A stretch of 64,000 bases of DNA from positions 1,024,001 through 1,088,000 of the forward strand of contig CM000153.2 of NCBI GenBank assembly GCA_000004695.1. The letters run 5' to 3'. Under the pieces are notes generated by a model. That model did not search any database. It was not told where the DNA came from and saw only the letters and a program-made list of their open reading frames with translations. Made by a program: the position numbers and the translations under genes. Every line of letters starts with the position of its first letter. Position 1 is the stretch's first letter. Positions 5,584 to 17,314 of the stretch are shown piece after piece. The DNA comes from Dictyostelium discoideum (Eukaryota).

Positions 5584-7872
5584 ATGGATACATTATCATT
5601 ATTTTTAGGATCAAAGGTAATAATAATAATTAGATTATTATTATTATTATTATTATTATAATTATTATTTTAAAATTAAAACCATATAATATTAATAATA
5701 TTTCTTTTATTTTAGGGTGAAAATAAAAAATTATTTAGCCAACTTTCAAAAATGGTATTAAACTCTGCAATTGATTCAAGAATTCAATACTGTGGTAATG
5801 AACCTTCAATTTTTGAAGATGATTATTTTGAATCTGATAATTTTAAAAAATCAAGTGAATTAATTAAAGAAAATACAAAGTTAATTTGTAATTATATTAA
5901 AGATTCTACTCAATTTTCAAGTTTACGATATCAAGCTCATATGATAGAAGATCCTTTAATTCCAAGTTTTATTGGTACAATTTCAGGCCTTTATTATAAT
6001 ACTAATACATGTACTCCTCAAGTTTCTAATAAATCTTCCTTTATTGAACATGCATTTGCTAGTGACCTATGTTCAATGGTAGGTTATGATACAAGTAAAA
6101 TACCAGATTATTATAATTCAATGAAAACAGTTTCAATAAAAGAAATAATTAAAAGAGAAGTTGAAACTGTATATCCTCATGGTCATAATACTAGTGGTGG
6201 TTCAGTATCAAACATTGAAGCATGTTGGTCAAGTTATTGGGTTAAATTTATTCCAGTTGCAATTAAAAATGCATTATTAAATGAAAATGATTTAATTGAT
6301 TCCAGGGAATTAACAATTACCCTAAATGATTGTAAAACTAATAAACAATTAATTGAATGTACAAATTGGGAATTATCAAATTTAAATGGAGATTTATCAG
6401 TAAAATTACCATATCAAATAAGTTTAGAATGTAATTTACCAATTGAAAATGTTTATGAAATTATTAAAAGATATCATTCGTGTTCATTGGGTGCATATCG
6501 GTTTTTTGTGGATAATCAAATTAATCAACCAATTTATTTAATACCAGCATCAGCTCATTATTGTTTTAAAAAAGCAGTATGTTTGATTGGATTAGGTTCA
6601 ACAAATATAAAATTAATAAAAATTGAACCAAATGGTAGAATAAATATAAATGATGTGAAAATGATTATTAAAAATTGTATTGAGAATCAAATTCCAATTA
6701 TTAATATCATATCGATATTAGGTTCAACCCAAGAGTATGGTGTCGATAATATTGATGAAATAGTTTCAATTAGAAATCAAGTAAGAAGAGACTTGAATTT
6801 TAATTTTGAAATGCATGTAGATGGTGCATTCGGTGGATATTCATTATCATGTATTAGAGATAACTTTCAATTGGAAAATCCATTAGATGATCAATTATTA
6901 TTTCCTAATAATATTGAAAATGAAAATAACAATCAAAATGAAATTGATTCATTTGATCCAGAATTAATAATTAGTAGTTATGTTAAAAAACAATTACATG
7001 CTTGTAAATTTGTAGATTCAATTACATTGGATGGTCATAAATCTGGCTTTTTACCATTTTCAAATAGTACAATTTGTTATAGAAATTCAAAGTATAAAGA
7101 TATTATTACACTCTCTTCTGCTTATATAGATATCTGTAAAAAGAATATTCCAAACTGTGGCGTGTTTGGTATTGAAGGTTCTCGTCCAGGTTATTCTTCA
7201 ATCGCAGGTTATTTAACTCATTCAATAATTCGTCCTTCGAAAATTGGATATGGTAAAATTTTAAAAAGATGTATTTTTAATGCAAAATTATTTTATATAT
7301 CCTTGTTAATTAAATTCGATGGTAATAATGGTAATAATATAAAAGTGTTTACAGTTGGTAATAATCCATCAAGTGATGTTTTAAATTATTTAAAAACAGA
7401 AATAATCGATTCGAATACTGGTAAAATCAAATCATTAGATCAAATTGTATCAAATAAAACATTATTACAAATTTTATCAAATTATGGAGCAGATTTAAAC
7501 GGTGTTTGTTTTGGTTTTAATTTTATTTCACCTTCAACTGGCGAATTAAATAATGATTATCAAAAATATGTAGAACTTAATAAAATGATAATTGATAGAT
7601 TCGATTATTCAAGAGGACCTGAAGCAGATTTGATATTTGGAAATACATTTTTAAATAATAGTTATGGTAATGAATTTATTTCAAATTTCCTTGAAACAAA
7701 TGAATTAAAAATTAATATCCCTATCTATAATAAAATCAAAATTCCAATACTAAGGTCATCAACTATGTCACCTTTTATTAGTGAAACATCTGAAGGTTCA
7801 TATATTGATATTATGCTTTACCTATTATTAAAAGAAATTACAGGTTTTTTATTTTCAATTGATAAATTATAA
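5584..7872 (+). CDS. PLP-dependent group II (DDC/GAD/TyrDC-type) decarboxylase-like protein, paralog A; join(5584..5616,5716..7872), about 729 aa
   Basis: Exon 1 is ATGGATACATTATCATTATTTTTAGGATCAAAG (MDTLSLFLGSK), followed by a GTAATA donor at 5617. The 99-nt AT-rich intron ends in TTTTAG at 5715. Exon 2 (GENKKLFSQLSKMVLNS...) is in frame with track ORF 5752..7872. Motifs present: HGHNTSGGSVSNIEA (TSGGSxSN), HVDGAFGGY and SITLDGHKSGF (the S-x-x-x-D-x-HK PLP-lysine motif). Confidence 0.8.
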
Positions 7873-9127
7873 TTAAGATAATAAATATTAAATAAAAAAT
7901 ATAAATATAAAAATAATACATAATCAATAAAGAATCATTAGAAATCTTAAAATGATAATAAATTTAGTATCAATGATTTTTTAATTTATCAATTATTAAA
8001 TAAATAATTTGATTAGGTGGTGTTTAATTATTTTTTTTTTTTTTTTTTTTGGAATTTATTATTAATTAAAAAAAAAAGTTTTATGATCTAACCCTATAGA
8101 TTCAAAATTCATACTAAATATTATTGACACAATTTTATCACTCACACAAGAGTATAAAATAATACAAAAGTGTTTTTAAAAATCATTATTAATGATTAAT
8201 AGATACACGTCCACCCCAAAATGGGTTATAAACAGCCAGTACAGCCCAAAGTGCACAACTAAATGCTTGTACGGGCTGTATGCAGAATCGATAGGGTTAG
8301 ATAATTACACTTTTTTATCCAATATTGTATTTATTTATTTATTTATTTATTTTTTTATAAAAAAATATTTTATTTAATTTAAATTTACACATATGAACAT
8401 ATCTGGAAAGTGGGTCATTAAAATAAAAAAAACTTTTTTTTTTAATTTTAATTAAATTTAATTTAAAATTAATTAAATTTAATAAAAATGGACATCTGTT
8501 TTAAATAATAAAGTAAAAATTGGTATATCTGTTTTAAACATTTTAATATAATTATTAAAATTTAATAAAATTTTATAATTATTATTTAAATTATTAATGA
8601 AATTAATTAAATTCTAAAAATACATTGGGTTATTAATATAACAAGATATTCTAAAACCGTATTAAAATTTCAAAAAAAAATTTCTTTGTTGCGATGAATT
8701 AGTTTTTCACAAGAGATTATATACCTTACAATAAAAAAGAATATCATTTTTTAAAAAGTAGATAAATGGATAATTAAGTAGATAATGGGATAAAAAAGTA
8801 AGATAATATTTTATGGAGTTATAATTTTAAACATATATTCTTTAATACCCGAAATTTCCTGTTTATTTAAAATTTATATTTGATAATTTTTCAAAATAAA
8901 CCAATATTAATTTGAATAGTGTTAGGTTTTTAATTTGAAATTTATAAATCGTGATAAATCTCTAAACAATTACTAATTAAATTTATATTAATTCTATAAA
9001 ATAAAAAAGTAAAATAAAAAACATTAAAAAAAAAAAAAATTTAAAACTTAATTTTTAAATTCGAAAAATTAATTAGTTATTTTAAAAATTTATATTGAAG
9101 ATAATTATAAATAAAGAATATTTTGAA

Positions 9128-11392
9128 ATGGATTCTTTATCATTATTTTTAGGATCAAAGGTAATATCTTTATATTATTATTATAAATCTCAAACCATAT
9201 TAATTAATTTTTTTTTTTTTTTAAAAAAAAATTAGGGTGAAAATAAAAAATTATTTTCTGAACTTTCAAAAATGGTATCAAACTATGCAATTGATTCAAG
9301 AATTAAATATAGTGGTAATGAACCTTCAATTTTTGAAGATGATTATTTTGAATCTGATGATTTTATAAAATCAAGTGAATTAATTAAAGAAAATACAAAA
9401 TTAATTTGTAATTATATTAAAGATTCTACTCAATTTTCAAGTTTAAGATATCAAGCTCATATGGTTACTGATCCCTTAATTCCAAGTTTTATTGGTACAA
9501 TTGCTGGTCTTTTTTATAACTCTAATATATGTACTACTCAATCTTCTAATAAAACTTCCTTTATTGAATATGAATTTGCAAATGATCTTTGTTCGATGGT
9601 AGGTTATGATACAAGTAATATACCAGATTATTATAATTCAATCAAAACAGTTTCTATAAAAGAAAAAGTTCAAAGAGAATTTGAAACTGTATATCCACAT
9701 GGTCATAATACTAGTGGTGGTTCAGTATCAAACATTGAAGCATGTTGGTCAAGTTATTGGGTTAAATTTATTCCAGTTGCAATTAAAAATGCATTATTAA
9801 ATGAAAATGATTTAATTGATTCCAAAAATTTATTTATTACATTAGAAGATGGTAAAACCAATAAATTATTAATTGAATGTACAAATTGGGAATTATCAAA
9901 TTTAAATGGTGATTTATCAGTAAAATTACCATATCAAATAAGTTTAGAATGTAATTTACCAATTGAAAATGTTTATGAAATTATTAAAAGATATCATTTA
10001 TGCTCATTAGGTACATTTAAATTTTTTGTAAAAAATAAAATTAATGAACCAATTTATTTAATACCAGCATCAGCTCATTATTGTTTTAAAAAGGCAGTAT
10101 GTTTGATTGGATTAGGCTCAGATAATATAAAACTAATAAAAATTGAACCAAATGGTAGAATGAATATAAATGAAGTAAAAACGATTATTAAAAACTGTAT
10201 TGAAAATCAAATTCCAATCATTAATATCATATCGATATTAGGTTCGACTCAAGAGTATGGTGCTGATAATATCGATGAAATTGTTTCAATTAGAAATCAA
10301 GTAAGAAGAGACTTTAATTTTAATTTTGAAATGCATGTAGATGGTGCGTTCGGTGGATATTCATTATCATGTATTAGAGAGAACTTTTGGTTGAAAAATC
10401 CATTAGATTATCAATTATCATTACCTAATAATTTTGAAAATGAACAAAATAATCAAAACGAAACTGATTCATTTGATCCAGAATTAATAATTAGTAGTTT
10501 TTTAAAAAAACAATTACATGCTTGTAAGTTTGTAGATTCAATTACATTGGATGGTCATAAATCTGGCTTTTTACCATTTTCAAATAGTACAATTTGTTAT
10601 AGAAATTCAAAGTATAAAGATATTCTAACATTAGCTCCTGTTTATGTCGATGATGGAAAAAAGAATATTCCAAACTGTGGTGTGTTTGGTATTGAAGGTT
10701 CTCGTCCTGGTCATTCTTCAGTTGCAGGTTATTTAACTCATTCAATAATTCGTCCTTCGAAAAACGGATATGGTAAACTTTTAAAAAGATGTATTTTAAA
10801 TTCGAAATTATTTTATATTTCCTTGTTAATTAAATTCGATGGTAATAATGGTAATAATATAAAAGTGGTCACAGTTGGTAATAACCCATCCAGTGATGTT
10901 TTAAATTATTTAAAAACAGAAATCATCGATTCGAATACTGGTAAAATCAAATCATTAGATCAAATTGTATCAAATAAAACATTATTACAAATTTTATCAA
11001 ATTATGGAGCAGATTTAAACGGTGTTTGTTTTGGTTTTAATTTTATTTCACCTTCAACTGGTGAATTAAATAATGATTATCAAAAATATGTAGAACTTAA
11101 TAAAATGATAATTGATAGATTCGATTATTCAAGAGGACCTGAAGCAGATTTGATATTTGGAAATACATTTTTAAATAATAGTTATGGTAATGAATTTATT
11201 TCAAATTTCCTTGAAACAAATGAATTAAAAATTAACATTCAAGCCTATAATAAAATCAAAATTCCATTACTCAGGTCATCAACTATGTCACCTTTTATTA
11301 GTGAAACATCTGATGGTTCATATATTGATATAATGCTTGACCTATTATTAAAAGAAATTACAGATTTTTTATTTTCAATTGATAAATTATAA
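9128..11392 (+). CDS. PLP-dependent group II decarboxylase-like protein, paralog B; join(9128..9160,9236..11392), about 729 aa
   Basis: Same two-exon structure as paralog A: exon 1 ATGGATTCTTTATCATTATTTTTAGGATCAAAG, GTAATA donor at 9161, acceptor AG at 9234..9235. It is about 90% identical to copy A at the protein level, with all PLP motifs conserved (SITLDGHKSGF, HVDGAFGGY). The 3' flank motif (ttaggtggtgtttaatt vs gaggtggtgttaaatt + poly-T) is also duplicated. Confidence 0.8.
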
Positions 11393-11535
11393 TAAAGATA
11401 ATTTTGAATAAAAAATTAAAAAAAAAATACTTTACATACCCAAAAAAGAACATTAAATATGGATTTCTAGAAATTAATAAAAGTTTAATATCAATACTTT
11501 TTAAAATTTAATAAATTATTAGACGAGGTGGTGTT

Positions 11536-11579
<44 letters not shown>

Positions 11580-12024
11580 TTTCTAGAAAAGTCTTAAAAA
11601 TTAATTATCTTTTAGTTTGTATATTAAAAATAACGTAGAAAGATATGAGCGTTTGGCTTATTTATTGTTGTAGTTTTGTTTTTTAGTTTTTTTAATAAGG
11701 ATAGTCTCCTCTTTTTTTATTTTTTTTATTTCTCCTTATTTTTTTTTTTATAATAATAATGAAAATTTTTTTTTAAAGAAAAAAGAATAGTGTAAGGGGA
11801 GCAGAAAAGAAAATAAAAAATAATATTAAACAAAGAATAGACCAACCGACCAGCGCCACATAAAATTACTTTTCACCACTTTAATGATGGAGTTTTTATA
11901 TCCAGCCAACCTTAGAATAGTGTTTAGGTATTGAGACAATGTTAAATCTTTGGGTAGAGTGTTGTTTTGTTTGAAAGTGTATTCTATTGGGCTATTAAAA
12001 AGTTTTAAATTTTTTAATCTTGGT

Positions 12025-13900
12025 GTTAGGATCAAAGGTAATAATTTTATATTATTATTATTATAAATTTCATACCATATTAATTATAATTTTTACAAAT
12101 TAGGGTGAAAATAAAAAATTATTTTCTGGTCTTTCAAAAATGGTATTAAACTCCGTAGTTGATTCAAGAATTCATATAGGGGTAATGAACCTTCAATTTT
12201 AGAAGACGATTATTAAAGATTCTACTCAATTTTCAAGTTTTAGATATCAAGCTCATATGGTTGTTGATCCTTTAGTTCCAAGTTTATTGGTACAATTGCT
12301 GGTCTTTTTTATAATTCTAATATCTGCACTCCTCAATCTTCTAATAAATCCTCCTTTATTGAAAGTGCATTTACAAATGATCTACGTTCGATGGTAAGTT
12401 ACGATACAAGTAAAATACCAGATTATTATAATTCAATCGAAACAGTTTCAATAAATGAAACAATTAAAAGAGAATTTGAAACTGTATATCCACATGGTCA
12501 TAATACTAGTGGTGGTTCAGTATCAAATATTGAAGCATGTTGGTCAAGTTATTGGGTTAAATTTATTCCAGTTGCAATTAAAAATGCATTATTAAATGAA
12601 AATGATTTAATTGACTCGAAAAATTTATAAATTACACTAGAAGATGGTAAAACCAATAAATTATTAATTGAATGTACAAATTGGGAATTATCAAATTTAA
12701 ATGGTGATTTATCAGTAAAATTACCATATCAAATATGTTTTGAATGTAATTTACCAATTGAAAATGTTTATGAAATTATTAAAAGATATCATTTATGTTC
12801 ATTAGGTACATTTAAATTTTTTACAAATAATCAAATTAATGAACCAATATATTTAATACCAGCATCGTCTTGTCTTAAAAAGGCAGTATGTTTGATTGGA
12901 TTAGGTTCAGATAATATAAAACTAATAAAAATTGAACCAAATGGTAGAATGAATATGAATAAAGTAAAAATGATTATAAAAGATTGTATTGAAACCAAAT
13001 TCCAATAATAAATGTCATATCGATATTAGGCTCAACTCAAGAGTATGGTGTTGATAATGTTGATGAAATATTTTCAATTAGAAATCAAGTAAGAAGAGAC
13101 TTTAATTTTAATTTTGAAATGCATGTAGATGGTGCGTTCGGTGGATATTCATTATCATGTAGTAGAGATAACTTTCAATTGGAAAATCCATTAGATGATC
13201 AATTATTATTTCCTAATAATATTGAAAATGATGATAACAATCAAAATGAAATTGTATCATTTGATCCAGAATTAATAATTAGTAGTTATTTTATGCTTGT
13301 AAATTTGTAGATTCAATTACATTGGATGGTCATAAATCTGGTTATTTACCATTTTCAAATAGTACAATTTGCTACAGAAATTCAAAGTATAAAGATGTTC
13401 TTACATTAGCTCCTGTTTATGTCGATGATGGAAAAAAGAATATTCCAAACTATGGTGTGTTTGGTATTGAAGGTTCTCGTCTAGGTCATTCTTCAGTTGC
13501 AGGTTATTTAACTCATTCAATAATTCGTCCCCTTCAAAAAGTGGATATGGTAAACTTTTAAAAAGATGTATTTTAAATTCGAAATTATTTTATAATTCAC
13601 TATTAACGAAATTCGATGGTAATAATGGTAATAATATAAAAGTGTTTACAATTGGTAATAATCCATCAAGTGATGTTTTAAATTATTTAAAAACAGAAAT
13701 AATCGATTCGAATACTGGTAAAATCAAATCATTAGATCAAATCGTATCAAATAAAACATTATTATAAATTTTATCAAATTATGGAGCAGATTTAAACGGT
13801 GTTTGTTTTGGTTTTAATTTTATTTCGCCTTCTACTGGTGAATTAAATAATGATTATCAAAAATATGTAGAACTTAATAAAATGATAATTGATAGATTAG
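12025..13900 (+). pseudogene. Degenerate third copy of the PLP-decarboxylase gene (truncated at both ends, frameshifts and in-frame stops)
   Basis: Only a remnant of exon 1 is left (ggtgttaggatcaaag|gtaataat at ~12025; the ATG is lost), followed by the intron. The exon-2 homolog starts ~12110 and is readable only as fragments (track ORFs 12391..12630, 13119..13310, 13322..13561). There is a TAA at ~12628, an internal deletion near 12200 and multiple 1-nt indels. It diverges from copy B after aaaatgataattgatagatt at ~13880, so the 3' ~280 nt are missing. Confidence 0.75.
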
Positions 13901-14050
13901 ATGATTTATTGGAACATTTAAATGGAATTTTAATTTTATTTTAATTTTCTTAAAATTTGATATTTTTTTTTTTTTTGTGTAATTCTTGGGAATAAAACCA
14001 ATTAAAAAATTAAAATTTCAACCTGTAATAAAATCTCAGTGTAAACACTC

Positions 14051-14775: not shown

Positions 14776-15531
14776 ATGGAAGGTAAAACAATTTTAGTAA
14801 CTGGCGCATCTCGTGGTATTGGTAGAGAAATCTGTTTACAATTAGCATCCTTAAAAAATGTTAATGTTGCTTTAGCAGATGTTAATGTTTGTGAAGAAAC
14901 CATTAACTTGATGAAAGAGATCAACCCATCAGTCGAAACCTTATCAATCGTTTGTGATATCTCAAAGAGTGATCAAGTTGAAGATATGGTAAACAGAGTT
15001 GTTGTAAAATTTGGCCGTTTAGATGGTGCTGTTAACAATGCTGGTATCTTGGGTCAAATGGCTAGAATTGGAGAATATGACGAGTCAATGTTCTCTAAAA
15101 TGATGGATATCAATATCAAAGGTACCTGGTTATGCATTAAATATCAAGTCAAACAAATGGAAAAACAAGGTAAAGGTGACTACTCCATCGTTAACATTTC
15201 CTCAATCGCTGGTGTATTATCATTCCCATACAACAGTGGTTACTCTGCCGTTAAACACGCTATTCTTGGTATCACTAAATCTGCTGCTGCCGAATATGGT
15301 GCCCTCAACATTAGATGTAATGCCGTATTACCAGGTGCCTCTGAAACTGCTATGCTTAGAGAATATTTACCACCAGGTGAAGCAACTGCTCAATTAGAAG
15401 GTCACGTCCCACTCAAGAGAGTATCACACCCAAGTGAAATTGCCAAACCAGTCTTATTCTTATTAAGCCCAGAATCATCCTACATTACTGGTCAATCCTT
15501 AATTGCTGATGGTGGTCTTACTATTGTTTAA
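14776..15531 (+). CDS. Short-chain dehydrogenase/reductase (SDR) family oxidoreductase, 251 aa, single exon
   Basis: TGASRGIG Rossmann motif, NNAG, and a catalytic S...YSAVK triad. GC content and codon usage are higher than in neighbouring genes, typical of a well-expressed Dictyostelium gene. Confidence 0.9.
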   Translation: MEGKTILVTGASRGIGREICLQLASLKNVNVALADVNVCEETINLMKEINPSVETLSIVCDISKSDQVEDMVNRVVVKFGRLDGAVNNAGILGQMARIGEYDESMFSKMMDINIKGTWLCIKYQVKQMEKQGKGDYSIVNISSIAGVLSFPYNSGYSAVKHAILGITKSAAAEYGALNIRCNAVLPGASETAMLREYLPPGEATAQLEGHVPLKRVSHPSEIAKPVLFLLSPESSYITGQSLIADGGLTIV

Positions 15532-15784: not shown

Positions 15785-17314
15785 TTAATTAACATACTGG
15801 AAAAGTTTGTCAAAATGAAATGAAATTTCTATGTTATCAATTACAATATCACCTTTTATATCTTTTATTTCAAAAATAATTTTATCCATTTGGAATCCTG
15901 GGTTAATGTCATATTTTTTAGTTCCATAGTACATTTTATTTTTATTATTAATTAATGAATTGCTATTTAATATATCATTATTAAAAGAATCCATATTTAA
16001 TTTTTTAATATTAACTTTTTCTAGAAATAATTTTGTTTGATTTGTTTTTGAATATGTTGAATTTATAAATAATAAAAAAGATAATTCACTCTCTATTTCT
16101 AAACAATTATTGTTATTATTTAAATTAATTTCATTTAATTTAAAATCATTTGAACAATGAATTAATATTGAAATTTGATTAAATTGTTTTTCTCCATTAA
16201 ATGATATTGATGTTTTTAAAATTTCATTTTTATTTATTGATGAAAAAAAAGGAATTAAACCAGATACTTGATCTATTAATTCATCTTGATTATTATTATT
16301 ATTATTAGTTGTGTTGTTGTTGTTGTTGTTGTTGTTGTTATTGTAATTATTAATACAATACATTAATGACTTTGGTTGAATTTTAAAAATATATAATTCT
16401 TCATTAAAATTATTTATTATTAAATTATTTTCATTTGTTTTTTCATCTTTTTTTGCACAAATAATTTTAATTGGATATTTATAATTTAAATAATCCAATT
16501 CATTAAATCTTGAAACATTTTTTAAAGTATTGTTTATTGTTGTTTTCAATTTATAAATATTATATTCATTAGTGTTTGACAATAATTGAAAAAATGAAAA
16601 TCCAAAATTATTTTGAAATTTTATTATTTCATTACGAAATTCATTTTGTAATTGTTTTTTCTTTTTTGGGTCAATACTAAATCCCCATTCATTACCATTA
16701 TTAATATAATCAATTTTTAAACAACTATATATTGACATATTTAAAGTTGATAATTTTAAAATTTGTTTTAAAAAAGTTGAAGTTGAAAAAGATGATAATG
16801 ACGATGAAGATGATTGTATCAGTGATGAAACAGGTTTAAAATAAAAGTCACTATATTCATTTAATAAAATTATTAATTTTGAATAATAATTTCTAATATT
16901 TAATTTTAAATTTTCATTTGAAAATTTAGAAAATTCTTGAAAATTAATAGTTTTTGAATTATAATTTGTAATAATTGATTTAATAGTTTTGTTACCAACA
17001 TTTCTAATTTCCCAAATTTTTAGTAAATCACATAAATTATTTCCATTCTCTTGTAAACTATATAAATTATTATTTAAAAATATTATAATTTCATCATTTA
17101 TTTTTTCATTTATTAATTGTTCAATATCTTGAATTAAACCATAAAATATTTTATTAAAATCATTTTGGTTTAAATAATTATTATCATCAAATGAGAATAG
17201 TGTTCCCCAAAATCCACTAAATATTCCTGATTTTAATTCATTATTAAATGGATTTAATCCAATTAAATTATATAATAATTGATATGATAATTCAATTCTA
17301 TCAATATCTTCCAT
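15785..17314 (-). CDS. Hypothetical protein, 509 aa, Asn-rich, no recognisable family
   Basis: A single long minus-strand ORF (MEDIDRIELSYQLLYNLIGLNPF...) with a poly-Asn tract. No motif I can name; additional exons cannot be excluded. Confidence 0.55.
   Translation of the reverse strand: MEDIDRIELSYQLLYNLIGLNPFNNELKSGIFSGFWGTLFSFDDNNYLNQNDFNKIFYGLIQDIEQLINEKINDEIIIFLNNNLYSLQENGNNLCDLLKIWEIRNVGNKTIKSIITNYNSKTINFQEFSKFSNENLKLNIRNYYSKLIILLNEYSDFYFKPVSSLIQSSSSSLSSFSTSTFLKQILKLSTLNMSIYSCLKIDYINNGNEWGFSIDPKKKKQLQNEFRNEIIKFQNNFGFSFFQLLSNTNEYNIYKLKTTINNTLKNVSRFNELDYLNYKYPIKIICAKKDEKTNENNLIINNFNEELYIFKIQPKSLMYCINNYNNNNNNNNNNTTNNNNNNQDELIDQVSGLIPFFSSINKNEILKTSISFNGEKQFNQISILIHCSNDFKLNEINLNNNNNCLEIESELSFLLFINSTYSKTNQTKLFLEKVNIKKLNMDSFNNDILNSNSLINNKNKMYYGTKKYDINPGFQMDKIIFEIKDIKGDIVIDNIEISFHFDKLFQYVN

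Follow-up and report, generated by a model that had tools for sequence, protein, structure and literature searches.

Do the three adjacent copies of a pyridoxal phosphate (PLP)-dependent decarboxylase gene in the genome of Dictyostelium discoideum AX4 stem from a single recent triplication, or do they represent the present state of an older array in which different enzyme types have been kept? The copies lie within a 64,000-nucleotide (nt) stretch of D. discoideum DNA (hereafter the window), which has a G+C content of approximately 20% and open reading frames (ORFs) rich in poly-N and poly-Q. A repeat search of the window recovered three head-to-tail copies in register, here designated A, B and C. 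In our reading, which we consider very probable, these form a tandem array of a gene for a 729-amino acid PLP-dependent group II decarboxylase, with two intact members (A and B) and one dead member (C); the array changes in copy number between genomes, and two types of catalytic loop have been kept within it. It is otherwise an ordinary, annotated birth-and-death array encoding enzymes of a known clade that await characterisation; the new point, of modest interest, is the loop dimorphism.

Genes A and B each comprise two exons encoding 729 amino acids, with no insertions or deletions (indels) between them. They differ at 160 nt positions (92.7% identity) and at 76 amino acid positions (89.6% identity), and both encode the motifs SITLDGHKSGF and HVDGAFGG. 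The spliced products of A and B were found to be identical to the D. discoideum AX4 RefSeq proteins XP_638984.1 (Q54QN9) and XP_638985.1 (Q54QN8), respectively, both described as a ‘pyridoxal phosphate-dependent decarboxylase family protein’; the two genes are therefore already present in public annotation. Literature searches with these accessions returned no paper mentioning either protein. Amino acid differences between A and B were found to cluster at residues 101-127, 393-434 and, most sharply, at residues 475-485 of the catalytic loop, and not at residues 500-520 as the initial annotation of this DNA had proposed; residues 557-679 contain none. Homology between the two genes extends from approximately 40 nt before the ATG to a poly-T run approximately 170 nt past the stop codon, with only AT-rich noise in the flanks beyond, and comparison of the AX4 spacers with one another gave just 57-62% identity, again AT-rich noise. 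The earlier observation that the upstream regions of A and B have diverged was thus borne out, each being orthologous to the upstream region of a separate array position in other strains. The spacing of approximately 3.5 kb that had been assigned to all copies applies from A to B (3520-3544 nt), whereas B and C are separated by approximately 2775-2877 nt.

Clear homology of copy C begins at 12026, within the final 12 nt of exon 1, the ATG having been lost. Relative to A, this copy carries seven indels (-1, -71, -1, -6, -1, -13 and +2 nt), of which six shift the frame and one is a 6-nt deletion, together with two in-frame stop codons at 12628 and 13765. Alignment with an intact last copy, the fourth of strain FIW, revealed that C breaks off near 13901, where a clean deletion of approximately 520 bp removed the last ~270 nt of the coding sequence (CDS) and ~250 nt of 3' flank. 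Since a remnant of the intron has been kept, C is a duplicated pseudogene rather than a retro-processed one. The gene models and lesions agree with the first description of the locus as two intact paralogues and a decayed copy. The accompanying statement that every unit is complete, down to a 3' flank bearing GGTGGTGTT and a poly-T run, stands for A and B and falls for C, which is without the start of exon 1, the end of the CDS and the 3' flank; the motif occurs behind A and B only. As a conserved signal this motif was rejected, not having been seen behind the copies in six of seven orthologous loci from other genomes.

The site patterns of the three copies, taken over 1793 ungapped columns, were such that B and C agreed against A at 84 columns, A and B against C at 66, and A and C against B at 48. 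Moreover, 14 consecutive informative sites united A and C against B (A 6861-6944, C 13169-13252, B 10381-10464) within the N-rich insert at residues ~393-421. Copy C is therefore mostly B-like yet mosaic, and the run of A-like sites reflects either a burst of change in B or a short patch of conversion between A and C.

The orthologous loci of seven other genomes were fetched and scanned for copies of the gene (Table 1). The synteny and copy-number comparison envisaged in the initial annotation returned 1 to at least 5 copies at the locus in these closer relatives, the four genomes of the D. discoideum complex (FIZ, FIY, FIR and FIW) holding 2 to at least 5 units, several of them decayed. An exhaustive search for more distant homologues recovered two genes on different scaffolds in D. 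purpureum (39-40% identity) and one in Cavenderia fasciculata (36%); the decarboxylase family is old in the Dictyostelia and fast-evolving. The same short-chain dehydrogenase gene is located 3' of the array in AX4, FIR, FIW, D. citrinum and D. firmibasis. Collinearity with the four-position arrays was evident in that A and its upstream DNA correspond to position 1, B and its upstream DNA correspond to position 3, and the DNA past C corresponds to that past position 4. AX4 has no position 2: approximately 0.5 kb, including a 217-bp element, takes up the place of approximately 3.9 kb. The three AX4 copies A, B and C hence stand at positions 1, 3 and 4 of an array with four positions.

The phylogeny of the copies was inferred from exon 2 with a bootstrapped neighbour-joining analysis. 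Copies grouped according to species or lineage, with the clades of D. firmibasis, D. dimigraforme, FIZ and FIY each supported at 100. Within the clade of AX4, FIR and FIW, gene A was placed weakly with the position-1 copies (52), whilst B and C formed a pair (87) that was sister to the position-3 and position-4 copies of FIR and FIW (96). This topology indicates that the split between A and the B/C pair is older than that between AX4 and FIR/FIW. The tree as a whole is compatible with repeated lineage-specific duplication and with concerted evolution alike. Beyond 117 nt from its start, the spacer between B and C matches nothing in FIR or FIW. We propose that the array expands and contracts by unequal recombination, such that new copies would arise, be made partly uniform by gene conversion and disappear again; in AX4 this process would have left A (position 1) and B (position 3) intact with unrelated upstream regions, C (position 4) dead, and position 2 gone.

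Residues 475-485, which flank Tyr481, read ITLSSAYIDIC in A (type I) and LTLAPVYVDDG in B (type II). In a comparison covering five genomes of one species complex (AX4, FIZ, FIY, FIR and FIW), the type I loop was present in AX4_A, FIZ_1, FIZ_4, the FIZ half copy and the decayed FIY_2, and the type II loop in AX4_B, AX4_C, FIY_1, FIZ_3, FIZ_5 and all FIR and FIW copies with a readable loop; the loops of outgroup species are nearer to type II. Just nine nucleotide sites in the whole gene are fixed between the loop types, and all nine fall within the 33 nt of CDS nt 1423-1455. A further 53 sites are fixed between AX4 and FIZ regardless of type, none of which lies between nt 1367 and 1515. When FIZ_1 and FIZ_3 were compared in 150-nt windows, divergence was 0-0.067 (at most 0.04 in all but one) and rose to 0.127 in the window of the loop. 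The simplest reading of these patterns is that the two paralogue types arose before the lineages of AX4, FIZ and FIY separated, and that gene conversion afterwards evened out the copies of each genome, with the loop protected, presumably by selection. If the loop has been so protected, the synonymous divergence (dS) of 0.17 between A and B underestimates the age of the two types.

Two other features of the arrays concern the loop types. The FIZ copies (L004 291-2449, 7014-8189, 10112-12270, 13032-15190 and 17118-19276) carry, in order, loops of type I, I (the half copy), II, I and II, and the tree pairs FIZ_1 with FIZ_4 and FIZ_3 with FIZ_5, which suggests that a two-gene unit of one type I and one type II copy was duplicated as a block. 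In FIW, the copy at position 2 (L007 6223-8135) has an internal deletion of CDS nt 1422-1673 that starts exactly at the loop segment and renders its loop type unreadable.

Birth-and-death combined with concerted evolution is an established general model for tandem arrays, and the present array resembles it in its varying copy number, the pseudogenes within it, the grouping of copies by genome and the mosaic sequences. It departs from that model in that a short functional segment, the catalytic loop, appears to escape homogenisation and does so in common among several lineages. The escape of short segments from homogenisation is known in other converted families; we know of no earlier description of it for the present family of enzymes.

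Rates of divergence between A and B, for which the initial annotation had called, were calculated by the Nei-Gojobori method as dS 0.172 and nonsynonymous divergence (dN) 0.055, giving a dN/dS ratio (omega) of 0.32. Relative to the positional counterparts in FIR and FIW, omega was 0.22-0.23 for A and 0.31-0.32 for B, and each gene is under purifying selection. A tract of low divergence between A and B (CDS nt 1723-2033, one difference) was significant when all differences were considered (p < 5e-5) and not when synonymous ones were (p = 0.15); as evidence of gene conversion it was rejected, purifying selection being sufficient to account for it. Synonymous divergence between AX4 and FIR/FIW was 0.13-0.18 at positionally equivalent decarboxylase copies (window positions 5716-13901), and lower in the flanking genes, namely 0.04-0.06 in the dehydrogenase gene (14776-15531) and 0.08-0.13 in the next ORF (15785-17314). 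This excess may stem from exchange between non-orthologous copies, an elevated mutation rate within the array, codon bias or old haplotypes.

A simple, recent triplication in the AX4 lineage, the copies of which have since drifted neutrally or redundantly and differ in the loop by accident, would account for some of these observations. All copies of the D. discoideum complex cluster apart from that of D. citrinum, B pairs with C, and the amino acid changes polarised with outgroups are roughly symmetric (24 derived in A against 34 in B, an asymmetry that is not significant, p = 0.24). It would not, however, explain why A and B line up with positions 1 and 3, respectively, in the arrays of other strains, each accompanied by orthologous upstream DNA, nor why omega is 0.2-0.3 on each copy separately. 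Additionally, AX4_A, FIZ_1, FIZ_4 and FIY_2 have the type I loop in common at the nucleotide level, synonymous states included, against the whole-gene tree. We therefore regard such a triplication as unlikely. The initial annotation had likewise presented the amplification as recent and unusual, a description that is difficult to sustain given a dS of 0.17 between A and B, a split of A from B and C that predates that of AX4 from FIR/FIW, and a copy number that varies across the close relatives examined.

What the array encodes was addressed by comparison with protein families and solved structures. The assignment to the PLP-dependent decarboxylases made in the initial annotation, with its expected match to PF00282, was upheld by scores of 53 bits (A) and 58.9 bits (B) against a cut-off of 27, the best stretch being residues 287-390. 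The tyrosine decarboxylase C-terminal domain PF21391 scored 16.1 (A) and 17 (B) bits, below its cut-off of 27.2, and the nearest bacterial relatives carry precomputed matches to it. Among solved structures, the best relative was 6EBN, the noncanonical aromatic amino acid decarboxylase (ncAAAD) of Psilocybe cubensis (PcncAAAD), chain residues 25-690 of which aligned with residues 5-701 of A (E 5e-72), followed by the ~620-amino acid tyrosine decarboxylases of Lactobacillus and Enterococcus (E 1e-41). Bacterial homologues of ~750 amino acids align end to end with the Dictyostelium proteins, with invariant residues through the final 130 positions. Whereas a word-indexed profile search contributed no further relatives, an exhaustive profile search retrieved 869 cluster representatives at E<=1e-30, the best of which were mostly 710-790 amino acids long and matched over their full length; family members of ~1000 amino acids were fungal, with one from a bivalve. 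A length of ~750 amino acids is the normal size for the family.

The AlphaFold model, built from an alignment of 68 sequences, had a pLDDT of 90.8 and a pTM of 0.92, with low values only in the catalytic loop (residues 481-485) and the N-rich insert. The loop is the sole segment of the model with a pLDDT below 50, which fits a mobile loop. In Foldseek searches, TM-scores normalised to the query were 0.84 for 6EBN, 0.71-0.74 for bacterial tyrosine decarboxylases and 0.45-0.53 for canonical group II enzymes of 460-500 amino acids; the top matches listed were all fold-type I PLP enzymes, and nearly all of them group II decarboxylases. We have high confidence, drawing on these alignments and the predicted model, that A and B are PLP-dependent group II decarboxylases of the clade that unites bacterial tyrosine decarboxylases with the fungal ncAAAD enzymes.

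It had been suggested in the initial annotation that the proteins consist of a canonical group II decarboxylase of ~500 amino acids and an additional, novel C-terminal domain whose role is unknown. The confident PF00282 match is indeed confined to the central part of the proteins (best at 287-390) and PF21391 remains below threshold; nonetheless, the alignment with the 6EBN catalytic domain is full-length, C-terminal residues are invariant across bacteria and Dictyostelia, the model forms one compact fold (pTM 0.92) like that of 6EBN and the tyrosine decarboxylases, and close bacterial relatives match PF21391. A fusion of this kind is very unlikely, and the suggested extension was abandoned in view of the 6EBN alignment over residues 5-701, the end-to-end bacterial homologues and the model TM-score of 0.84. 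A tempting misreading is thereby corrected, in that the large size of the proteins is usual for the family and does not reflect a new extension. Compared with DOPA decarboxylase (~480 amino acids), the additional length presumably amounts to ~150 residues before the PLP lysine and ~100 after it, by our estimate from the established numbering of that enzyme.

Three groups of enzymes may be compared with the Dictyostelium proteins. PcncAAAD is the best match in both sequence and structure, and equivalents of its Lys443, His442 and Tyr471 are present in A and B; in contrast, it is 1013 rather than 729 amino acids in length and has an appendage domain (residues 718-1013) that A and B are without, identity is only ~23-30%, and the fungal ~1000-amino acid proteins form a separate clade in a rough tree. 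Bacterial tyrosine decarboxylases (PDB 5HSI and 7CWX) have the same enlarged group II architecture, with a TM-score of 0.86-0.89 to the target and weak tyr_de_CO2_C similarity, whereas the Dictyostelium proteins are ~110 amino acids longer and have extra inserts at residues ~140-165 and ~395-425. Canonical group II decarboxylases (those for DOPA and other aromatic amino acids, glutamate and related substrates; ~470-520 amino acids) have in common with A and B the type I fold and the HVD-A-GG aspartate and D-x-H-K lysine motifs; unlike them, A and B are ~230-250 amino acids longer, with the excess spread along the chain, and TM-scores of 0.45-0.53 and identities of 12-14% separate the two.

His168, His292, Asp380, His452, Lys453 and Tyr481 are present in both A and B, with His292, Asp380 and Lys453 situated in the motifs SAHY, HVDGAFGG and DGHKSG, respectively. 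Across 68 family members Asp380, His452 and Lys453 are invariant and His292 nearly so, and Tyr481 is conserved in the dictyostelid, bacterial sister-group and fungal members. Following established knowledge of the family, we take Lys453 to be the PLP lysine, Asp380 the partner of the pyridine nitrogen and His292 the residue that stacks on the ring. Lys453 and Tyr481 align with Lys443 and Tyr471 of PcncAAAD, and the lid-loop ligands Ser632 and Glu638 of its metal site A align with the acidic residues Asp641 and Glu647 in both A and B. By homology, PLP would form an internal aldimine with Lys453, pair with Asp380 through its pyridine nitrogen and be stacked upon by His292; after loss of CO2, the flexible catalytic loop would bring Tyr481 into place to protonate the carbanion, and the amine would be released. 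The catalytic loop of aromatic amino acid decarboxylases (AAADs) carries a proton-donating tyrosine that is essential for decarboxylation (PMC13062060).

The catalytic domain of PcncAAAD spans Met1-Asp717, and its appendage domain, residues 718-1013, is needed for activation by calcium, holds metal site B and contributes the site A ligand Asp971; without this appendage the enzyme loses activity (PMC13062060). Since A and B end at 729 amino acids, within the equivalent region, their sequences identify them as the counterpart of the PcncAAAD catalytic domain alone, without the calcium-sensing appendage. The third metal ligand belongs to the missing appendage, and calcium control of the fungal type therefore could not apply in the same way. 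We have high confidence in the family and the chemistry, which would make A and B cytosolic PLP-dependent L-amino acid decarboxylases without the fungal calcium switch. The likeliest substrate would be an aromatic L-amino acid and the product an arylalkylamine, for which substrate class we put the chances at about even. The Dictyostelium enzymes may in this manner be set beside PcncAAAD, the sole characterised eukaryotic member of the clade, and are predicted from their sequences to work without a calcium-sensing domain.

Changes in the catalytic loop can switch the outcome of the reaction in plant aromatic amino acid decarboxylases, and the position of the dimorphism suggests that enzymes A and B probably differ in substrate or reaction preference. 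A more specific proposal, which we put forward tentatively, is that A and B are two old enzyme types kept apart by selection, with distinct specificities (for different aromatics, or for decarboxylation as opposed to decarboxylation-dependent oxidative deamination), and that they may supply arylalkylamines for dictyostelid secondary metabolites. The loop dimorphism offers a compact hypothesis, open to testing, on the evolution of specificity in aromatic amino acid decarboxylases and could provide an entry point to arylalkylamine metabolism in social amoebae. One such metabolite is brefelamide, from the group-4 species D. brefeldianum and D. giganteum, a moiety of which, by our own reading of its chemistry, corresponds to decarboxylated 3-hydroxykynurenine; any link with A or B is speculative. 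PcncAAAD is reported to decarboxylate 3-hydroxykynurenine (PMC13062060).

Several points weigh against the overall reading of an array of changing copy number with two maintained enzyme types. The pairing of B with C is explained equally well by conversion and by a distal copy having been duplicated independently in AX4 and in FIR/FIW, and conversion in AX4 is itself deduced from mosaic and tree patterns, the tract at CDS nt 1723-2033 being non-significant. The dimorphism draws on five genomes of one species complex, and no intact copy of FIR or FIW carries type I. With regard to the enzymes, PcncAAAD needs its appendage, which is absent here, so that regulation must differ, and the Asp641 and Glu647 positions would not be able to form the same metal site without the appendage ligand. 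The substrate and product are proposed by analogy with relatives of 20-30% identity. The equivalog model for Enterococcus-type tyrosine decarboxylases, TIGR03811, scored 186.6 bits against a cut-off of 905.3, which marks A and B as relatives and not orthologues; a tyrosine-specific function is therefore not transferable to them.

A recent horizontal transfer from bacteria into D. discoideum, followed by amplification, was considered since a word-indexed search returned close Dictyostelium relatives followed directly by bacterial proteins of ~28% identity. In a rough neighbour-joining tree of family representatives, moreover, the Dictyostelia were monophyletic (bootstrap 100) and sister (100) to a group of four sequences in bacterial contexts, apart from the fungi. 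Of these, one comes from a Spirochaetales metagenome-assembled genome, one from a bacterial genome in which the gene lies beside GGDEF/EAL and chemotaxis-receptor genes, and one from a compact bacterial-like contig. The homologues of D. purpureum (39-40%) and Cavenderia fasciculata (36%), which fall in one clade with the D. discoideum group, led us to reject a recent transfer as hardly credible, and the spliceosomal intron and host-like composition likewise speak against it; any transfer would predate the dictyostelid radiation. An ancient transfer from bacteria at the base of the Dictyostelia may have occurred, though the method and sampling of this tree are too crude to claim an origin. A bacterial homologue of the sister group (L008 8005-10594) is situated near an aldehyde dehydrogenase and a short-chain dehydrogenase, a neighbourhood that could suggest amine or aldehyde processing. 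A functional tie between the Dictyostelium array and its conserved downstream short-chain dehydrogenase was rejected, the neighbouring dehydrogenase of the bacterial homologue sharing just a generic 27% identity.

That A and B are one gene shown twice through misassembly, for which only the general risk in AT-rich repetitive genomes speaks, is the most improbable of the alternatives given their 160 nt differences (7% of sites), unequal introns and unrelated upstream regions, the entry of the identical proteins in another accession series, from another contig, and the multi-copy arrays of other assemblies with collinear copies in other strains. Both of the outcomes that the initial annotation had named as fatal to its own claim, a lack of PF00282 matches and duplication by assembly, are thus contradicted by the data.

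Table 1. Features of the decarboxylase array in the window, and copies of the gene in the orthologous loci of seven other genomes.
Feature	Position or locus	Strand	Remarks
Gene A exon 1	5584-5616	+	11 codons, MDTLSLFLGSK
Gene A intron	5617-5715	+	99 nt, GT..AG
Gene A exon 2	5716-7872	+	Stop codon included; type I catalytic loop; PLP-Lys453 codon at 7039-7041
Gene A catalytic-loop segment	7105-7137	+	Residues 475-485, ITLSSAYIDIC; contains all nine fixed loop-type sites
Gene A 3' flank common to B	7873-8051	+	GGTGGTGTT at 8016-8024, then poly-T run
217-bp element with 18-bp terminal inverted repeats	8086-8302	none	A-B spacer; later insertion outside the repeat unit
Gene B upstream region	8429-9127	+	Orthologous to the DNA upstream of position 3 in the FIR and FIW arrays, 71-73% identity
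Gene B exon 1	9128-9160	+	MDSLSLFLGSK
Gene B intron	9161-9235	+	75 nt
Gene B exon 2	9236-11392	+	Stop codon included; type II loop LTLAPVYVDDG at 10625-10657
Gene B 3' flank	11393-11580	+	GGTGGTGTT at 11527-11535, then poly-T run
Copy C pseudogene	12026-13901	+	Exon 1 remnant 12026-12037; intron remnant 12038-12103; decayed exon 2 from 12104; type II loop
D. citrinum	L003		1 copy
D. firmibasis	L001		2 tandem copies
D. dimigraforme	L002		2 tandem copies
D. cf. discoideum FIZ	L004		4 intact copies and a half copy in 22 kb, another copy upstream
D. cf. discoideum FIY	L005		1 intact, 1 decayed
D. discoideum FIR	L006		4 positions, two decayed
D. discoideum FIW	L007		4 positions, two damaged (one internal deletion, one premature stop)

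The 217-bp element in the spacer between A and B is delimited by terminal repeats that read ATCTAACCCTATAGATTC and its own complement with one mismatch, where no matches were expected by chance. It is richer in G+C than its surroundings and folds into a long hairpin (z = -5.7). The window contains a single copy, and none was found in the loci fetched from relatives, including FIR and FIW. Scans against Rfam (the whole window at gathering thresholds, and the A-B spacer at E<=1) and for tRNAs found nothing, so the element, which matches neither an Rfam family nor a tRNA, does not correspond to a known RNA gene; it is possibly a miniature inverted-repeat transposon. A scan of the same spacer for bacterial-type promoters and terminators, which is inapplicable to a eukaryote, returned 18 promoters against 16.2 expected from shuffled sequences and no terminators, and was discarded.

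In the spacer between B and C, the segment 11551-11702 is 70% identical, on the opposite strand, to an unrelated part of the D. dimigraforme locus (L002 20075-20236), and may be a dispersed repeat. Genes with matches to a DDE transposase domain (DDE_Tnp_4) were located inside or beside the arrays of the two D. cf. discoideum genomes (L004 6165-6671, a weak match, and L005 15601-16856), and mobile elements may contribute to rearrangement of the array.

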